NCBI GenBank assembly: GCA_963847665.1
Contig: CAWKAO010000003.1
Location: 638,309-702,308 of the forward strand
DNA from: an uncultured Actinomycetes bacterium
GTDB taxonomy: Bacteria > Actinomycetota > Humimicrobiia > Humimicrobiales > Humimicrobiaceae
Direction of reading: 5' to 3'
Length of the DNA stretch: 64,000 nucleotides
Under the pieces are notes generated by a model. That model saw nothing but the letters and a program-made list of their open reading frames with translations, was not told the origin of the DNA and did not search any database. Both the position numbers and the translations under genes were made by a program. Shown here piece after piece: positions 5,641-26,210 of this stretch; the stretch's first letter is position 1; each line of letters opens with the position of its first letter.

Positions 5641-6462
5641 ATGAATGATGAATTTATTATTGTTACGGAGAATGTCAGTAAAACTTACATAACCCAAAAA
5701 GAACCGGTACCTGCTATAAAAGATTTTTCGATGCAGATAAAAGAAGGGGACTTTGTAGCTATAGTGGGACCAAGTGGTTGTGGAAAAACAACCCTTCTTT
5801 GGGGTCTGACTGGCCTTCACCCCTTTACTTCTGGGAGAGCATTAATACTGGGAGAAGAAGTAGAAAAACCAAGAAAAGAAGTTGGGATAATCTTTCAGCA
5901 GTCTAATCTTTTACCGTGGAGAAATTTAATTGATAATATGTATTTTCCACTTGAAATAATGAGAGAAAACTTAAATGATTATAAAGAGCACGTTTCAGAG
6001 TTGATAGAAAGTGTTGGTTTGGGTGGTTTTGAAAAACGATACCCAAAAGAACTTTCTGGAGGCATGCAGCAGAGAGCGTCAATCGTAAGAGCATTATCAT
6101 ATGACCCAAAAATACTGCTGATGGACGAACCATTTGGGGCGCTTGATGCTTATACAAGAGATGAGATGGACACACTTATTTTAGGAATTTGGGAAAAGAC
6201 AAAAAAGACTATTGTCTTTGTGACACATAGAATAGAGGAAGCAGTTTACCTTGCAAATAAAGTATATGTTATGACTCCCCGGCCTGCAATAAATTCTGAA
6301 ACTTTCAATATTGATCTACCAAGGCCTCGTCCGGCTGGCATAACTATGGATAAGATATTTTTTGAGATTGTAGCAAAAATTAAGAAAAAAATTGTAGATG
6401 ATGTAGAGGCACAAAAAAAAGCTGGAAAATATGCAAGCCAGGCTTTCAGTACTGTAGCTTAG
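5641..6462 (+). CDS. ABC transporter ATP-binding protein (NitT/TauT family)
   Basis: Walker A GPSGCGKTT, signature LSGGMQQR, Walker B LLMDEPF. AAGGAG SD upstream. Confidence 0.9.
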   Translation: MNDEFIIVTENVSKTYITQKEPVPAIKDFSMQIKEGDFVAIVGPSGCGKTTLLWGLTGLHPFTSGRALILGEEVEKPRKEVGIIFQQSNLLPWRNLIDNMYFPLEIMRENLNDYKEHVSELIESVGLGGFEKRYPKELSGGMQQRASIVRALSYDPKILLMDEPFGALDAYTRDEMDTLILGIWEKTKKTIVFVTHRIEEAVYLANKVYVMTPRPAINSETFNIDLPRPRPAGITMDKIFFEIVAKIKKKIVDDVEAQKKAGKYASQAFSTVA

Positions 6463-6572
6463 AAAAAAATTATTTTGTATCTACCATCTATATAAAATTT
6501 AATTACGAAATAAAATATAGGAAGTAAATATTTAAGTTATAAATAGAATATAAAAACTACAGGAGTATATTT

Positions 6573-7433
6573 ATGAGTAACTATGACGAAGAATTAAAAG
6601 ATAAGATACCAGATTTCGAAGAGGCAGAGCACCATCATAAGCAGACAAGCAGCCTCGATATTTCTGCTACTGTGTCTGCCGTAAAAATACACGGATGGAA
6701 GCAAGTTGTAGGTATTTTAGTAATGGCAATTATCATCATAGGCCTCTGGGAGCTTCTTGTCAGGTTGTTTCACGTTCCGGAGTATGTCTTTCCGACACCA
6801 ACTGCAATTATAAAAGCGCTGATTACTTCTTTTCCAAATATATATCCCGATTTTTTATATACACTATCGGCACTTGTGTCCGGATATTTAATAGGAGCTT
6901 CGATAGGACTTATTTTGGCTGCTGTTCTTACCCAGATACCATTTATAGAGAAAATAATAACTCCTTATATAATTTTAATAATAACAACTCCAACGATTGC
7001 CCTGATTCCTTTACTTATGATAATGCTCGGGTTTAATATCTGGCCAAGAATAATAGCAGTTGCATTAGCTGTAGGGCCAATGGTCATGATCAATTCAGTC
7101 ACAGGTTTCAGGCAGACAGATCTGGCAAAGATCGCTCTTGCAAAATCTTATGGGGCGACTACTTTTCAAATATTTAGAAAGATCCGATTTCCTCTTGCAC
7201 TTCCTATGATCAATGTAGGGTTACTTGTCGGAGGTATTTTTGGTCTTATCACTGCAGTTGGAGCAGATATGGTTGGAGGTAAAATAGGGTTGGGCCATAA
7301 AATAGCATATTATTCTGCTCTTGCCAGAATGGGTAACTTTTTTGCTACAATACTTTTAGTTTCTATAATAGGGATTTCTATATGGATCATTATGGCAAAT
7401 GTCGGGAGAAAATGGTCAAGCTGGAGCGAGTAG
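6573..7433 (+). CDS. ABC transporter permease (NitT/TauT family)
   Basis: 286 aa, multiple TM helices. The region SYGATTFQIFRKIRFPLALP resembles the BPD-transporter EAA loop. Sits in an operon with the SBP and ATPase. Confidence 0.85.
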   Translation: MSNYDEELKDKIPDFEEAEHHHKQTSSLDISATVSAVKIHGWKQVVGILVMAIIIIGLWELLVRLFHVPEYVFPTPTAIIKALITSFPNIYPDFLYTLSALVSGYLIGASIGLILAAVLTQIPFIEKIITPYIILIITTPTIALIPLLMIMLGFNIWPRIIAVALAVGPMVMINSVTGFRQTDLAKIALAKSYGATTFQIFRKIRFPLALPMINVGLLVGGIFGLITAVGADMVGGKIGLGHKIAYYSALARMGNFFATILLVSIIGISIWIIMANVGRKWSSWSE

Positions 7434-20841: not shown

Positions 20842-21148
20842 ATATCTTCCATCTCAGGGATTACCGGATCTGGTATTTTGTTATTATAATGGATTTGGAT
20901 TATTTTGCATTTGTTTAATACAACCTAAACAAAACACCTATCTTTTTTCGTTTTAATCAATATAAGTAAGTTGTTTTTTATAAGGATAATAAAGGGCTAA
21001 AAATAAATTTGCATAAATTTATTTTATAACTACACTAGTAACGATTATTATTAACAGGTTAAAAGAAATACGGGTATAAATTATTTTTTGTATTCAGGAG
21101 CCAGTATTTTTTTTTGTAAAGATTTAGACATAGAACAGTGTAGTTTAA

Positions 21149-21724
21149 ATGGATAATATTTATAAATATTTAGTCAATTATAAAAGAAGTGGTGAAAAAA
21201 AATGGTTTGATAAGATCTATTATCATTTCTTACCCAAAATCTATAACTATTTTTATTTTAATACATTTGACACCCATATTTCAGAAGATCTTGCAAGTGA
21301 AGTTTTTTTTAAAATATATAAGAACATAAAAGACACAAAATTAAATAGCAGGACTTTAAATTCATGGATCTATAAAATAGCAAAAAATCATCTGATAGAT
21401 TACTTTAGGAAGAAAAAAATTTATACAGACAACATTTTATTGACTGACAATTATGATGATATTAATGATGACAAATTAATTGATACTGATTTTTTTATAA
21501 AAAATAGTATTTTATTAAGAAAAGAATTTAGTTTTGAAAACCAGAAACTTATAAAAGCTATGGACCGGCTGACTTTGCTTCAAAAGAATATAATAATATT
21601 AATATTTATTATGGACCTGGACTATAAGACGATTGCAGATATCCTGATGAAAAAGGAGTCTACGGTCAGGGGTATATTGTTTAGAGCATTAAATATATTA
21701 AAGAGTGAAATCGATTATGACTGA
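21149..21724 (+). CDS. ECF-type RNA polymerase sigma-70 family factor
   Basis: 191 aa. Region 2 (IYKIAKNHLIDYFRKKK) and region 4 HTH (DYKTIADILMKKESTVRGILFRALNILK). Very AT-rich gene. Confidence 0.75.
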   Translation: MDNIYKYLVNYKRSGEKKWFDKIYYHFLPKIYNYFYFNTFDTHISEDLASEVFFKIYKNIKDTKLNSRTLNSWIYKIAKNHLIDYFRKKKIYTDNILLTDNYDDINDDKLIDTDFFIKNSILLRKEFSFENQKLIKAMDRLTLLQKNIIILIFIMDLDYKTIADILMKKESTVRGILFRALNILKSEIDYD

Positions 21725-22595
21725 AAAAGAACTGACTGACAGACAAATAGAAAAGATCTTATATAACTGTATCAACCTAATGAGAAAAGGTTACGATCTT
21801 CAGTACTGTATGGACAAATTTAGTAAGTATAAAGATATTCTATCTGAATACTTTTTAATAATGAATAGTTTTAAGATGTTAGATAAAAAGGCTATAGATC
21901 ATGTAATGGAGAAAAGGATCTTAAATAGTATATATTCAGATGAAGTTTCCCCAAATGACCATGATGAACAGGTTGCAGTACAGATCCCAGATCAAAGAAG
22001 AAAGGTTTTTTTTCGGATATTAAAACCTGCAATAATATTTTTATTTGTATTTGCCTTACTTAATTTTTCATTTATTGGTTTTAGTTATGCATCCCAAGAC
22101 AGTATTCCAGGCGATACCTTATATTCAACAAAGAGGAATATAGAGCAATTGAAATTGGTAATTTATCCCAAATCTTCGAAAAGCATAATTCATTTTCAGA
22201 TTTTAAATAGTAGGATATATGAAGCCGAAAAATTATTTAATTCCAATAAAGCCCAAAAAACTGTTACAGATGTCCTCATCAGAGAAGCAGAAGAGGAGTT
22301 TGACCAATGCAAGAAATATGAGTATTTTGATGGTGCATCTGAAGAAGAATTTGAAGAAGCTATTCTGGATATAAAAGAAAGATCAGAAAAAGAATTCAAT
22401 GAAGAGGCAGAAGAAAAATATGAAAATAATGATAATATAAAAGAAGATTCGAGTAAATCAGAAAAAGATTCAAATGAGTCAGAAGACCAGGAAAGTATTG
22501 AAGAGGAATCAAATGATACTTTAGATGAGGATAATAGCCCGGAAAAAGCTGAAGAAAAAGAAGATGAACATTCTGAAGAATCCGATCATGATTAA
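21705..22595 (+). CDS. putative anti-sigma factor (single TM, DUF5667-like extracytoplasmic domain, poly-acidic tail)
   Basis: Likely start is ATG 21717, overlapping the sigma stop (ATGACTGA). One TM helix (ILKPAIIFLFVFALLNFSFIGF), then PGDTLYSTKRNIEQLK typical of DUF5667. The last 85 or so aa are E/D/S-rich. Confidence 0.5.
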   Translation: MKSIMTEKELTDRQIEKILYNCINLMRKGYDLQYCMDKFSKYKDILSEYFLIMNSFKMLDKKAIDHVMEKRILNSIYSDEVSPNDHDEQVAVQIPDQRRKVFFRILKPAIIFLFVFALLNFSFIGFSYASQDSIPGDTLYSTKRNIEQLKLVIYPKSSKSIIHFQILNSRIYEAEKLFNSNKAQKTVTDVLIREAEEEFDQCKKYEYFDGASEEEFEEAILDIKERSEKEFNEEAEEKYENNDNIKEDSSKSEKDSNESEDQESIEEESNDTLDEDNSPEKAEEKEDEHSEESDHD

Positions 22596-22795
22596 AAAGA
22601 TAAAATAATTTTTTTAAGAAGCTAAACAAAAACCGCACTCTCTTTCGTTTATATACATAATAGTAATATAATCGAAATAATGATTAACTTTATTTTTAAC
22701 TAAATAATTAATAATATAATTATTTTTTTATTTAAAATTATATTCATTATTATTTCAATAATTAATTTTCAGTTAATTTATTAAAGGAGAGAATA

Positions 22796-23857
22796 TTGAA
22801 AACAAAGATCCATTTTAAAAAGATATTGGTATCCTTTTTTGTGGTATTGGGCTTTATTTTTTATGGAGTCTATCAGAGGATAGATTCCAGCTTCCAAAAT
22901 TTGGCAGGAAATTCTCCAGGAAACTCAACAGTTGCTGAATCTATACTTGAACCAGAAAGTAATACTGCAAAAAAACAGCTGAAAGCTGAAGAAATTGAGA
23001 TAAGTACAGCTGGTGAAACTGCAAATGCGCCAAAGAGTAAATTTAAAGATGGACAATATACTGGAAGCATAGAAGATGCTTATTATGGACTGGTCCAGGT
23101 CAAAGGGATTATCCGGAACGGTAAGCTCACTGACGTCCAGTTCCTGAATTATCCAGACGAAAGGAGCTATTCAGTCGAGATAAACAAATTTGCTATGCCC
23201 ATATTGACATCTGAAGCAGTTGAAACACAGAGTGCCCAGGTTGATATCGTTTCTGGAGCCACTAATACAAGCAGAGCTTTTATTGCTTCTCTGTCAACTG
23301 CTCTTAACCTGGCAGCAGTAGATAAAGATATGAATCCAGTAATCCAGGTACAGGTGCCAAAGGTAGACGCAGTTTCCAGTGCCACAAATGTTGCAAGTAG
23401 CTCCACAGGAGTGATCTCAGCAAGTCTTAGCCAGAGTGTCTGGACTGATGCAGTTTCCGGTGCCACAAATGTTGCAAGTACTTCATTGGGTGCACTTTCA
23501 GTAAGCTTGGGTCAGATTTTTGGGACAGATGCAGTTACTGGAGCGACAAACGTCTTAGATACTTCTACGGTTTTAACATCATCAGATCAAAATCAGAATA
23601 GCCAGATAGATATAATTTCTGGAGCAACGAATATTGCAGATGCTTCTGTAAATCCAGCGTCAATAGTTCAGGAACAGACTTCACAGGTCGATGTGGTCTC
23701 AGGAGCTACTAATACAGGTAGCGGTTCAACTACAGTCACAAGTTCCGATCAGTCTGACAGCGAACACGATTCTGATGATGAACACGATTCTGATGATGAA
23801 CACGATTCTGATGATGAACACGATTCTGATGATGAACACGATTCTGATGATGATTAA
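22796..23857 (+). CDS. membrane-anchored FMN-binding protein with six ApbE flavinylation motifs and an (EHDSDD)x5 tail
   Basis: TTG start 5 nt after AAAGGAGAG. K-rich N-terminus plus one TM helix. One full FMN_bind-like domain (aa 84-170 approx) ends in DIVSGAT. It is followed by DAVSSAT, DAVSGAT, DAVTGAT, DIISGAT and DVVSGAT. Confidence 0.75.
   Translation: MKTKIHFKKILVSFFVVLGFIFYGVYQRIDSSFQNLAGNSPGNSTVAESILEPESNTAKKQLKAEEIEISTAGETANAPKSKFKDGQYTGSIEDAYYGLVQVKGIIRNGKLTDVQFLNYPDERSYSVEINKFAMPILTSEAVETQSAQVDIVSGATNTSRAFIASLSTALNLAAVDKDMNPVIQVQVPKVDAVSSATNVASSSTGVISASLSQSVWTDAVSGATNVASTSLGALSVSLGQIFGTDAVTGATNVLDTSTVLTSSDQNQNSQIDIISGATNIADASVNPASIVQEQTSQVDVVSGATNTGSGSTTVTSSDQSDSEHDSDDEHDSDDEHDSDDEHDSDDEHDSDDD
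23366..23770 (+). repeat. five tandem 81-nt (27-aa) coding repeats, each starting with D-x-[IV]-[ST]-[GS]-A-T-N
   Basis: The motif Asp codons sit at 23366, 23447, 23528, 23609 and 23690, exactly 81 nt apart. The first 34 nt or so of units 1 and 2 are nearly identical. Confidence 0.85.
23762..23851 (+). repeat. perfect 18-nt x5 tandem repeat GAACACGATTCTGATGAT encoding (EHDSDD)5
   Basis: Five identical copies read directly from the sequence, in frame, ending 6 nt before the stop codon. Confidence 0.95.
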
Positions 23858-23893: not shown

Positions 23894-24691
23894 TTGAGCT
23901 ATAGATTGACAATTACGCCTGTGAAACAAACAAGAGATCAAATGGGAATGACTATAACGGTAGAGATAGTAGATGGATTTGCTTCCCAAGCAGACATAAA
24001 CGATATCTATTCATATTTTCGTAGTGTCGAAAAGAGATTTAGCGTATTTAATACCAACAGTGAGATTTCTAGAATAAACAGGGGTGAAATTAAAAAGGAA
24101 GATTTTAGCAAGGATATGATCTCTGTCTTTGAACTTGCAGAAAAGACAAAAAACCAAACAGGCGGATATTTTGACATAATTACAAAGGACAAAAAATATA
24201 ATCCTTCCGGGATAGTCAAAGGTTGGGCTATTTATAATGCCTCAAAGATATTGCTGAGCCAGGGATATAAAAACTTCTATATAGATGCTGGCGGAGACAT
24301 ACAGGCTCATGGAAAAAATAAATATGGATTTGACTGGAAGATTGGGATAAAAAATCCCTTTTCTCAGACACAAATAGTGAAAGTGATCGGTCTTAAAAAT
24401 ATGGGTATAGCGACCTCCGGCACATATATCAGGGGCCAGCATATCTATGATCCCTTTAATAGAAGCAAAGTTTTAACAGAGATCATCAGCTTAAGCGTTA
24501 TAGGCCCGGATGTCCTCGAAGCAGACAGATTTGCGACAGCAGCTTTTGCAATGGGAAAACAGGGAATCGACTTTATTGAAAATGTTGAATTTCTGGAAGC
24601 ATATATGATAGATAAAGACGGATTTGAAGTGAAAACTTCTGGTTTTGAAAAATATTATATTTCTAAATCTGATCAGTTTAAAAATGTTTAG
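23894..24691 (+). CDS. apbE: FAD:protein FMN transferase (ApbE family), no signal peptide
   Basis: MGMTITVEI, PSGIVKGWA, IDAGGDI, IATSGTYIRGQHIYDP and EADRFATAAF match conserved ApbE blocks. The hydrophilic N-terminus starts (TTG) only 12 codons after the in-frame TAA of the upstream gene. Confidence 0.8.
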   Translation: MSYRLTITPVKQTRDQMGMTITVEIVDGFASQADINDIYSYFRSVEKRFSVFNTNSEISRINRGEIKKEDFSKDMISVFELAEKTKNQTGGYFDIITKDKKYNPSGIVKGWAIYNASKILLSQGYKNFYIDAGGDIQAHGKNKYGFDWKIGIKNPFSQTQIVKVIGLKNMGIATSGTYIRGQHIYDPFNRSKVLTEIISLSVIGPDVLEADRFATAAFAMGKQGIDFIENVEFLEAYMIDKDGFEVKTSGFEKYYISKSDQFKNV

Positions 24692-26210
24692 AAAGATAGA
24701 CAATATATTAAATAAAATAACTATGTACCAGACGGTACTATACTGCCTGTTGGTAATTCTTTTTTCAGCGTTTGTGTTGAGTTTTTTTGGACTTATGCCT
24801 TTTAAATCTTTTGATTTGATCTCATCTTCAGTATTTATTTTAGCTGTATGTATCCTTTCCAATGCTGTATTTGCATGGGCATTTGAAGCTCCGACTAATA
24901 TTGAATCCGTTTATATAACAGCTCTGATCCTGACTCTTATCATCAACCCTACGGATCCTATGAAAAACCTTATATTTCTATTCTGGATCTCAGTTTTAGC
25001 TATGGCTTCAAAATATATTTTTGCTACGGGAAAAAAACACCTATTCAATCCTGTCGCAATTTCGGTAGTACTAGTAAGTGTGGTTGCAGGCAAAGCTGCC
25101 AGTTGGTGGATAGCAGGCCCATATATGTTGCCTTTTGTATTTTTATTCGGCCTTCTTGTGGTGAGGAAAATAAAACGTTTTGACATGGTTGCTAGTTTTT
25201 TAATAACAGCACTTATTACAGTTACTGTTTTTAATTTTATACATAATCAGAATATTTTCTCAGGGTTGCAAAAAACATTTCTATATTCACCTCTTTTATT
25301 TTTTGCGTTTATAATGCTGACCGAACCGATGACTATACCTCCTTCTAAGATTATGCGGATACTATATGGCATGATAGTCGGTTTTTTATTTGCACCACAG
25401 GTACACATAGGTTCTGTTTATTTTACTCCCGAGATGGCACTGGTTCTGGGAAATATATTTTCCTATCTTATAAGTCCAGATAAAAAACTGATACTGACTC
25501 TCGATAGAATAGTAAAATTGACTCCAGATATATATGATTATGAATTTATATCTGACCAGAAAATCGAATTTGTACCTGGGCAATATATGGAATGGACTCT
25601 GGAACATCCTAGCCAGGATAGCAGGGGGATAAGACGATATTTCACAGTAGCTTCTTCCCCAACAGAGGAAAAAATACATCTTGGAGTAAAATTTTATAAT
25701 AACTCCAGCAGTTTTAAAAAAAACCTGTTAAAAATGAAAGAAAAAGAAACAATAGTGGCGTCTCAATTATCAGGCGATTTTACTCTTCCTAAAAATATAA
25801 ATAAAAAACTGGTCTTTATCGCTGGTGGTATTGGTATAACTCCATTCAGGAGCATGATAAAGTACATGTTAGACAATAATGAAAGAAGGCCTGTTGTCCT
25901 ATTTTATTCAAACTGGAAATATGATGATATTGCATATAAAGATATTTTTGATAAAGCAAATCAACGACTAGGAATCAAAGTAGTGTATTCAATAGTGGAC
26001 GATACGCCACTGGATACTAAAGAGGGTTGTTTTTATTGTGGTTTTCTAAAAAGTAAAAATATTATAGAAGAGGTCCCGGACTACAAAGAAAGGATTTTCT
26101 ATATTTCCGGTCCACCTTCAATGGTCACATCTTTCGTAAATACCCTTAGAAAGATCGGGGTCAAAAAGACACATATTAAAACAGATTATTTCCCGGGTTT
26201 TGCATCTTAA
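24684..26210 (+). CDS. RnfD/NqrB-like polytopic membrane domain fused to FNR-type FAD/NAD(P)H oxidoreductase domain
   Basis: Preferred start is ATG 24684 (overlaps the ApbE stop, ATGTTTAG); the ORF track start is 24645. HLFNPVA and MLTEPMT resemble RnfD/NqrB motifs. The C-terminal RRYFTVAS (RxY[ST] FAD motif) and FIAGGIGITPF (NAD(P)H motif) are FNR-like. Confidence 0.7.
   Translation: MFRKIDNILNKITMYQTVLYCLLVILFSAFVLSFFGLMPFKSFDLISSSVFILAVCILSNAVFAWAFEAPTNIESVYITALILTLIINPTDPMKNLIFLFWISVLAMASKYIFATGKKHLFNPVAISVVLVSVVAGKAASWWIAGPYMLPFVFLFGLLVVRKIKRFDMVASFLITALITVTVFNFIHNQNIFSGLQKTFLYSPLLFFAFIMLTEPMTIPPSKIMRILYGMIVGFLFAPQVHIGSVYFTPEMALVLGNIFSYLISPDKKLILTLDRIVKLTPDIYDYEFISDQKIEFVPGQYMEWTLEHPSQDSRGIRRYFTVASSPTEEKIHLGVKFYNNSSSFKKNLLKMKEKETIVASQLSGDFTLPKNINKKLVFIAGGIGITPFRSMIKYMLDNNERRPVVLFYSNWKYDDIAYKDIFDKANQRLGIKVVYSIVDDTPLDTKEGCFYCGFLKSKNIIEEVPDYKERIFYISGPPSMVTSFVNTLRKIGVKKTHIKTDYFPGFAS

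Follow-up and report, generated by a model that had tools for sequence, protein, structure and literature searches.

The window analysed here is a 64-kb stretch (64,000 nucleotides) of contig CAWKAO010000003.1 from an uncultured bacterium of the Humimicrobiaceae (phylum Actinomycetota; assembly GCA_963847665.1). At positions 22796–23857 of the plus strand it contains a gene for a 353-residue protein (plus stop codon), the multi-site FMN protein, in which one complete flavin mononucleotide (FMN)-binding domain is followed by five tandem units that repeat only the motif for flavin attachment by ApbE. The reading frame opens with TTG, preceded at the right distance by AAGGAG, and homologues start at the same position. 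Residues 1–28 (22796–22879, plus strand) form a membrane anchor recognised from the sequence, with a Lys-rich N-terminus and then a hydrophobic helix. The segment contains no Cys and thus no lipobox, looks uncleaved, is kept in homologues and is helical in both of the AlphaFold models described below. A polar spacer leads from the anchor to the full FMN_bind domain at residues 83–175 (23042–23320, plus strand), which was identified by Pfam, by confident structure prediction and by Foldseek. The Pfam model (FMN_bind, PF04205) matches residues 98–171 with an E-value of 4e-9 and 37.4 bits against a cut-off of 22, and is the sole domain counted in the protein. The flavinylation motif of this domain, DIVSGAT, lies at residues 150–156 (nucleotides 23243–23263), ahead of its last helix. 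From the positive-inside rule and the precedent of RnfG and NqrC, the protein would be oriented N-in/C-out, with its bulk outside the cytoplasm.

Ahead of the repeats lies a 41-residue stretch that includes the last helix of the FMN_bind domain. The five motif-only units then occupy 23366–23770 on the plus strand, with Asp codons at 23366, 23447, 23528, 23609 and 23690. An earlier reading of the window, made from its letters and open reading frames (the sequence-only reading), had described this arrangement; every coordinate it gave proved correct, and all four motif spacings are exactly 81 nucleotides (27 residues). The units begin, in order, DAVSSATN, DAVSGATN, DAVTGATN, DIISGATN and DVVSGATN, giving the general form D-x-[VI]-[ST]-[GS]-A-T-N. 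There are thus six motif matches in the protein, of which those in units 2–5 agree exactly with D-x-x-[S/T]-G-A-[S/T] and that in unit 1 carries a Gly to Ser change (DAVSSAT). The segments between the motifs are, as had been reported, rich in Ser, Val, Thr and Ala (29, 19, 18 and 15 among 141 residues). It was also right that the units are too short for an FMN_bind fold: the repeat region alone gives only a partial match to the FMN_bind profile, covering positions 40–67 of 77 at 15.1 bits, below the cut-off. The protein ends in an acidic, His-containing tail, (SDDEHD)x5 followed by SDDD (23771–23854, plus strand), which is encoded by a perfect 18-nucleotide tandem repeat of 5.1 copies at 23762–23853. 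This tail repeat is a very recent expansion, unlike the old 81-nucleotide units just upstream. An open reading frame of 99 residues on the minus strand, 23167–23466, overlaps the gene and was disregarded as lacking any support.

Chance does not account for the repeats. Translated in six frames, the window has no further match to [DN]xx[ST]GA[ST], and none of 200,000 residue shuffles of residues 172–325 produced more than two motif matches. At the DNA level, Tandem Repeats Finder reported only the 18-nucleotide tail repeat and not the 81-nucleotide period, because the units are too diverged, and the array was hence analysed at the protein level. Units 1 and 2 are the closest pair, identical at 32 of their initial 34 nucleotides and at 70% of nucleotides overall, and the remaining pairs share 36–59% nucleotide identity, with connectors that are approximately 30–60% identical. 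At the fourfold-degenerate third positions of the S-G-A-T codons, just 8 of 32 pairwise comparisons among the units agree, which is no better than random, and the S-G-A-T residues have been kept between units although these synonymous sites are saturated. Saturated synonymous change, retained residues and exact 27-residue spacing together imply that the array is old and that its motif and spacing are constrained; judged from these patterns, it is neither a product of chance nor a drifting linker. The recent duplication that had been proposed therefore stands for units 1 and 2, but not for the array overall.

A homologue search covering 5.8 billion clustered proteins returned 141 relatives. About 90 of these are single-domain proteins of approximately 200–240 residues, which end exactly 26 residues past the motif Asp (...DIVSGATNTSNAFINSLSSALSQAKV). 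The multi-motif form is represented by about 20 proteins, 35–46% identical to the window protein and carrying three to six motifs at a spacing of 25–30 residues; where named, they belong to Candidatus Humimicrobiaceae or Actinomycetota, and nearly all possess an acidic tail ending in DD. Two proteins (P0008 and P0011) consist of two full domains with a similar acidic tail, and an intermediate form with one extra motif is found at L119. Alignment of 22 non-redundant 26-residue units from the homologues shows that S4, G5, A6, T7, N8, N21 and V26 are invariant and that V3, I19 and Q22 are nearly so, while positions 11–18 form a variable Ser/Thr/Gly connector. The invariance of SGATN in this set means that the motif strings are not the unconserved content of a variable linker, in agreement with the sequence-only reading. 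Copy number changes by whole units, as can be seen from two nearly identical proteins, P0001 (five motifs, 412 residues) and P0012 (four motifs, 386 residues), whose difference is exactly one 26-residue unit. Comparison of these two, together with L010, reveals a copy-number polymorphism of flavinylation units between closely related populations. A separate observation concerns the domain's own site, which reads AGAT (D-I-V-A-G-A-T) in 12 of the 17 aligned multi-motif proteins (P0001, P0002, P0004–P0007, P0009, P0012 and P0014–P0017 in alignment A1), and the mini-units of these proteins keep SGAT.

The architecture is rare. We built a profile from one unit and the motif after it (A2) and ran it, with no word index, over 1.84 billion representative proteins; its only end-to-end matches were two representatives, both of which belong to this multi-motif family. 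Approximately 170 further hits covered a single motif, nearly all in classical multi-domain proteins in which the motif spacing is mostly 90–140 residues. The architecture, whose 27-residue period had been thought worth seeking elsewhere, was thus found in these proteins only within this family. Two apparent short-period matches were set aside as artefacts: a 191-residue protein among the representatives (P0203) has seven copies of GSRSGATNLSYFLREFV at a 17-residue period (GSRSGATNLSYF...) and looks like a translated DNA repeat, and P0129 is a leucine-rich-repeat protein. The array was present in 1 of 220 relatives from species-representative genomes and in about 7 of 328 (approximately 2%) from Joint Genome Institute (JGI) metagenome contigs. 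The single-domain form is widespread, occurring in Patescibacteria, Chloroflexota and Actinomycetota.

Several features point to the origin of the unit. Its length equals that of the terminal segment of the single-domain proteins (26 residues past the motif Asp), and its conserved end, I-Q-N-Q-x-x-x-V, mirrors the I-K-N-Q-S-A-Q-V that precedes the motif of the domain. Moreover, a tblastn search with the window's own FMN_bind domain recovers the units. Taken with the partial profile match of the repeat region, this indicates that the array descends from the C-terminal flavinylation segment of the domain, which was duplicated in tandem. The duplicated segment comprises the last 26 or so residues of the domain: the end of a long helix, the D-x-x-S-G-A-T-N flavinylation loop and the terminal helix. 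The copies of this helix have since degenerated, their helix-forming residues having been replaced by Ser, Thr and Gly.

We modelled the protein with AlphaFold in two runs. The first, based on 17 sequences, gave a mean predicted local distance difference test (pLDDT) score of 41.7, and the domain itself was poorly modelled; the second used 121 sequences. In this second model the FMN_bind domain has pLDDT values of 86–97, and its best Foldseek match is domain 2 of SaFMN3 (PDB: 8p2a), with a target TM-score of 0.93, a root-mean-square deviation of 1.0 Å and 36% sequence identity. The repeat region has pLDDT values of 41–71, which is low confidence, but both runs place the same beta-hairpin at each unit: D-x-V-S forms one strand, G-A the turn, and a second strand runs on from the acceptor Thr, with a third strand in units 1 and 2. 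The structure prediction that the sequence-only reading had proposed for this region is reproducible in pattern and weak in confidence. AlphaFold over-predicts regular beta structure for repeats, so the hairpins are a lead and not a result. The SV2 luminal domain is a beta-helix, and it appeared in the Foldseek search with the repeat part at a probability of 0.1 or less; that search gave no significant match. Searching PDB sequences with the repeat region or with a profile recovered nothing but the one flavinylation loop of 3o6u, and its E-values were not significant.

The same reading had described the array as a flexible tether, and this is not established. The repeat region falls, like the domain, on the folded side of the Uversky charge-hydropathy boundary (mean hydropathy 0.503 versus 0.444), it is not rich in Lys or Arg, and the units show no variation in length despite their old divergence; to this can be added the low-confidence hairpin at each motif. 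It is conceivable, though unlikely, that the units stack as a regular beta structure, with one coil or hairpin per 27 residues and the flavinylated Thr residues in a row a few angstroms apart. The exact spacing, the conserved Asn, Gln, Gly, Val and Ile outside the motif, the Uversky score and the identical strand pattern are all compatible with such an arrangement. If true, the stacked units would form a short ladder of stacked covalent flavins, a protein-templated flavin wire, and we know of no description of such a cofactor arrangement.

Whether isolated motifs of this kind can be modified is addressed by published work on ApbE. The minimal ApbE motif comprises seven residues, D-x-x-[S/T]-G-A-[S/T]; mutation of the Asp to Ala has a minor effect, Gly to Ala leaves approximately 50%, and Thr is favoured over Ser (PMC12052999). 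ApbE fully modifies a 12-residue tag placed at either terminus, and such a tag also functions in loops; the attached flavin retains the potential of free FMN (PMC9400968). In FMN_red proteins, motifs on an unstructured C-terminal extension are flavinylated (PMC11334425). Since a seven-residue motif suffices, whether at a terminus or within a loop (PMC12052999, PMC9400968), we regard flavinylation of the predicted unit sites by ApbE as likely, with unit 1 (SSAT) perhaps a poorer site. We infer that the unit motifs are accessible to ApbE.

The surrounding genes place the protein in a membrane electron-transfer context. Immediately downstream, at 23894–24691 (plus strand), lies a gene for an ApbE-family FAD:protein FMN transferase, in agreement with the earlier assignment (Pfam ApbE E-value 1.2e-40, with an NCBIfam match). 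This is followed at 24645–26210 (plus strand) by a gene for an RnfD/NqrB-like membrane domain fused to an FNR-type FAD- and NAD(P)H-binding domain, with matches to PF03116 (32.2 bits), PF00970 and PF00175 (50.1 bits). The fusion is also present at the homologous loci L001, L006 and L007, and the trio of FMN protein, ApbE and fusion recurs at the multi-motif locus L006; L001 has the fusion without ApbE. At L007, a single-domain locus whose domain is 70% identical to that of the window protein, the same gene order is found. The protein encoded there (5998–6690) contains an acidic low-complexity stretch (DDEEDYEIVDNEEDEEDEEEEDDEDY), located in the spacer between anchor and domain and not at the C-terminus. 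L002–L005 have a divergently transcribed gene for a NapH-like Fer4_5 membrane protein instead of ApbE and the fusion, and this group of proteins may be an alternative electron-input module. The NapH-like gene lies divergently upstream of the sigma, anti-sigma and FMN genes (for example L002 58–933 and, on the minus strand, L003 2879–3754). Beside it, L003 (2145–2882, minus strand) and L004 encode an unannotated 245-residue membrane-anchored protein. A check of the rest of the window for paralogues of ApbE, RnfD and the FMN domain found none.

Upstream of the multi-site FMN protein is a pair of regulatory genes. An extracytoplasmic function (ECF) sigma factor is encoded at 21149–21724 (plus strand), with Pfam matches to Sigma70_r2 and r4 and a TIGR02937 score of 75.6 bits against a cut-off of 42.9. 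Overlapping it by 20 nucleotides, a gene at 21705–22595 (plus strand) encodes an anti-sigma-like membrane protein with one hydrophobic span, whose outer part resembles DUF5667 and whose C-terminal tail is acidic. Its DUF5667 match of 24.8 bits falls below the cut-off of 27 and no anti-sigma domain model matched; homologues at L001 and L006 also match DUF5667, faintly in the case of L001. An ECF sigma factor gene and a DUF5667-type anti-sigma-like gene lie immediately upstream in all five distinct multi-motif loci, and the single-domain locus L007 is without the pair. The ECF-type promoter-like element TAAAC-N18-CGTTT occurs exactly twice in the window, at 20926–20953 upstream of the sigma factor gene and at 22623–22650, approximately 145 nucleotides upstream of the start of the FMN protein (both on the plus strand); the two copies align with each other. 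Similar AAC-N17-CGTTTATATA elements precede the homologous genes at L001 and L003. The arrangement of the two elements fits a predicted autoregulation of the sigma factor together with direct control of the operon. Only two open reading frames in the window have long Asp/Glu-rich C-terminal tails, those of the anti-sigma-like protein and of the multi-site FMN protein, and anti-sigma-like homologues with acidic tails are found at L001 (6747–7700), L002 (2141–3262), L003 (4957–6075) and L006 (203–1126). The shared acidic tails hint at a common ligand or at an interaction between the two proteins.

Considering these data together, we think it probable that the protein is an anchored RnfG/NqrC-type protein with five extra, fold-less ApbE sites, serving as a multi-flavin relay or reservoir. 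In the mechanism that we infer, which covers flavinylation of the unit sites, topology, electron path, acceptor and tail function, ApbE would link FMN to the Thr of every motif through a phosphoester bond, so that one chain could carry up to six FMN. NAD(P)H would supply electrons by way of the FNR-type domain in the RnfD-like membrane protein, whose gene lies two genes downstream; some relatives instead have a NapH-like iron-sulfur membrane protein encoded nearby. The electrons would then pass to the FMN of the folded domain and on to the exposed flavins of the array, whose potential would be close to that of free FMN. The array would act as a tethered multi-flavin relay or reservoir that serves an acceptor outside the cell. 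Binding of cations or mineral surfaces is a possible role of the acidic His-containing tail, and the adjacent ECF sigma factor probably drives expression of the operon.

Some observations sit uneasily with this scheme. Attachment of FMN at the unit sites and an acceptor outside the cell are both predictions. The ApbE of the window has no signal peptide, lipobox or membrane segment, even in the longest possible open reading frame of 265 residues, and the copies at L006 (2312–3064) and L007 (6687–7448) are likewise without a signal peptide or membrane segment, yet the substrate is predicted to face outwards; modification would have to precede its export or follow some other route. The RnfD-like domain contains no [ST]GA[ST] motif by scan, unlike true NqrB and RnfD, and is therefore probably not flavinylated itself, which bears on the proposed electron path across the membrane. 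ApbE is missing from the contig at three of the five distinct multi-motif loci, and in at least one relative (P0024) the motifs have decayed to DIVNGTT and DIVTSAT. Finally, unit 1 reads SSAT and not SGAT, and substitution of the Gly halved the flavinylation of a model protein (approximately 50%).

The alternatives differ in whether the units are flavinylated and, if so, what the flavins do. The units could be structural, either as a Ser/Thr-rich spacer or as a small beta-rich stalk that holds the acidic tail off the membrane, with SGATN kept for structural reasons such as a tight turn and no flavinylation in vivo. We consider this doubtful. A stalk would accord with the hairpin and its Gly-Ala tip at every motif in both AlphaFold runs, with the position of the repeat region on the folded side of the Uversky plot, with the tight spacing (25–30 residues in the family, exactly 27 in the window) and with an ApbE that lacks an export signal. 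The model confidence is low, however, and the repeats have no significant Foldseek match. The conserved core is the exact ApbE consensus including the acceptor Thr, the same string that the protein's own domain carries, and an ApbE gene is adjacent; short exposed motifs are good ApbE substrates; and in 12 of the 17 aligned proteins the units keep SGAT while the domain site reads AGAT. A neutral low-complexity expansion, in which the repeats are a product of recent slippage with no selected function, is very improbable. The near-identical starts of units 1 and 2, the nucleotide-identical units in some homologues (L001) and the perfect 18-nucleotide repeat behind the acidic tail would all be expected of slippage, but they must be set against motif residues that are kept in the window despite saturated synonymous sites, a conserved core with variable connectors across proteins that are approximately 40% identical, and an unchanged spacing.

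It also seems unlikely that the units are flavinylated but form no wire. The array would then be a store of covalent flavin, a surface that scavenges O2 or produces peroxide, or a sensor of redox state or metals that is coupled to the anti-sigma-like protein. In favour of this reading, SaFMN3, which carries three FMN, has one potential for all its flavins, shows no directionality and reacts with O2 (PMC10339131). The strict linkage of the sigma/anti-sigma pair to the multi-motif form, the acidic tails on both the anti-sigma-like and the FMN proteins, and the orthologous single-domain locus L007 without the pair point in the same direction. Sustained electron flow is nevertheless a better fit than storage to a dedicated NAD(P)H-linked membrane module encoded alongside (or its NapH-like counterpart in relatives), and, judging from the promoter-like elements, the sigma factor would have the operon as its target and not as its sensor.

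It has been proposed that multi-flavinylated proteins are to flavins what multihaem cytochromes are to haems, and the protein described here would share with such cytochromes the attachment of several covalent redox cofactors through short motifs on one extracytosolic polypeptide. A defined fold holds the haems of multihaem cytochromes at fixed distances, whereas no defined packing of flavins is established for the window protein. With proteins known to carry several flavins (Meheust et al., 2021, PMC8238504; Huang et al., 2024, PMC11334425; Tong et al., 2023, PMC10339131, describing SaFMN3 and CbFMN4), the window protein has in common a predicted extracytosolic location, several ApbE sites per chain and an association with transmembrane electron-transfer modules. 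These proteins, and with them every described case, repeat the whole FMN_bind domain of approximately 80–90 residues, whereas the extra sites in the window lie 27 residues apart without a binding fold. As published, a multi-flavinylated protein is an extracytosolic protein in which Pfam finds more than one FMN-binding domain (PMC8238504); the window protein falls outside this domain-based definition, having one such domain, although it has more than one predicted flavinylation site. It resembles the ApbE-associated FMN_red extension proteins, whose flavinylation has been demonstrated experimentally, in that its motif-only sites lie beyond the core fold, on a C-terminal extension (PMC11334425). 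Those proteins have one or two motifs, which fold back onto a pre-existing non-covalent flavin pocket (PMC11334425), while the window protein has five extra sites and just one pocket, which already has its own motif. The Flavin-tag is likewise a short D-x-x-S-G-A-T peptide without a binding domain, and its flavin is exposed with the potential of free FMN (PMC9400968, PMC12052999). The tag is engineered and single, whereas the array is natural and tandem, and its conservation extends beyond the minimal motif, with I-Q-N-Q-x-x-x-V before it and N-[IV]-S after it. We found no published description of motif-only repeat arrays in the open-access literature searched.

The locus as a whole fits a recognised type. 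An 'NQR/RNF-like' flavinylation cluster has been defined by a protein whose N-terminal domain matches PF03116 and whose C-terminal domain matches PF00175, encoded together with ApbE or FMN_bind, and NqrB and RnfD are themselves flavinylated (PMC8238504). The window contains such a fusion with both an ApbE and an FMN_bind gene adjacent, and it has in common with the clusters of Actinobacteria and of the candidate phyla radiation (CPR) the RnfD/NqrB-NqrF-like fusion, the ApbE, the FMN_bind protein and the taxonomic range (PMC8238504). The usual partner in these clusters is a single-domain protein of approximately 200–240 residues, whereas the repeat array is found in few relatives.

What appears to be new is a conserved architecture for a predicted multi-flavin carrier, built by repeating only the attachment segment of approximately 26 residues. 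Pfam sees one domain in such a protein, so surveys that count domains would score it as carrying a single flavin; they would miss motif-only arrays, and the number of multi-flavin carriers in genomes is thus probably underestimated. The array offers a compact system for studying the action of ApbE on closely placed natural sites, the behaviour of exposed tethered flavins and the role of their spacing, and it is a possible natural template for dense flavin labelling in protein engineering. Its tight link to an ECF sigma/anti-sigma pair, with acidic tails on the FMN and anti-sigma-like proteins alike, could serve as a regulatory handle that leads to the physiological acceptor.

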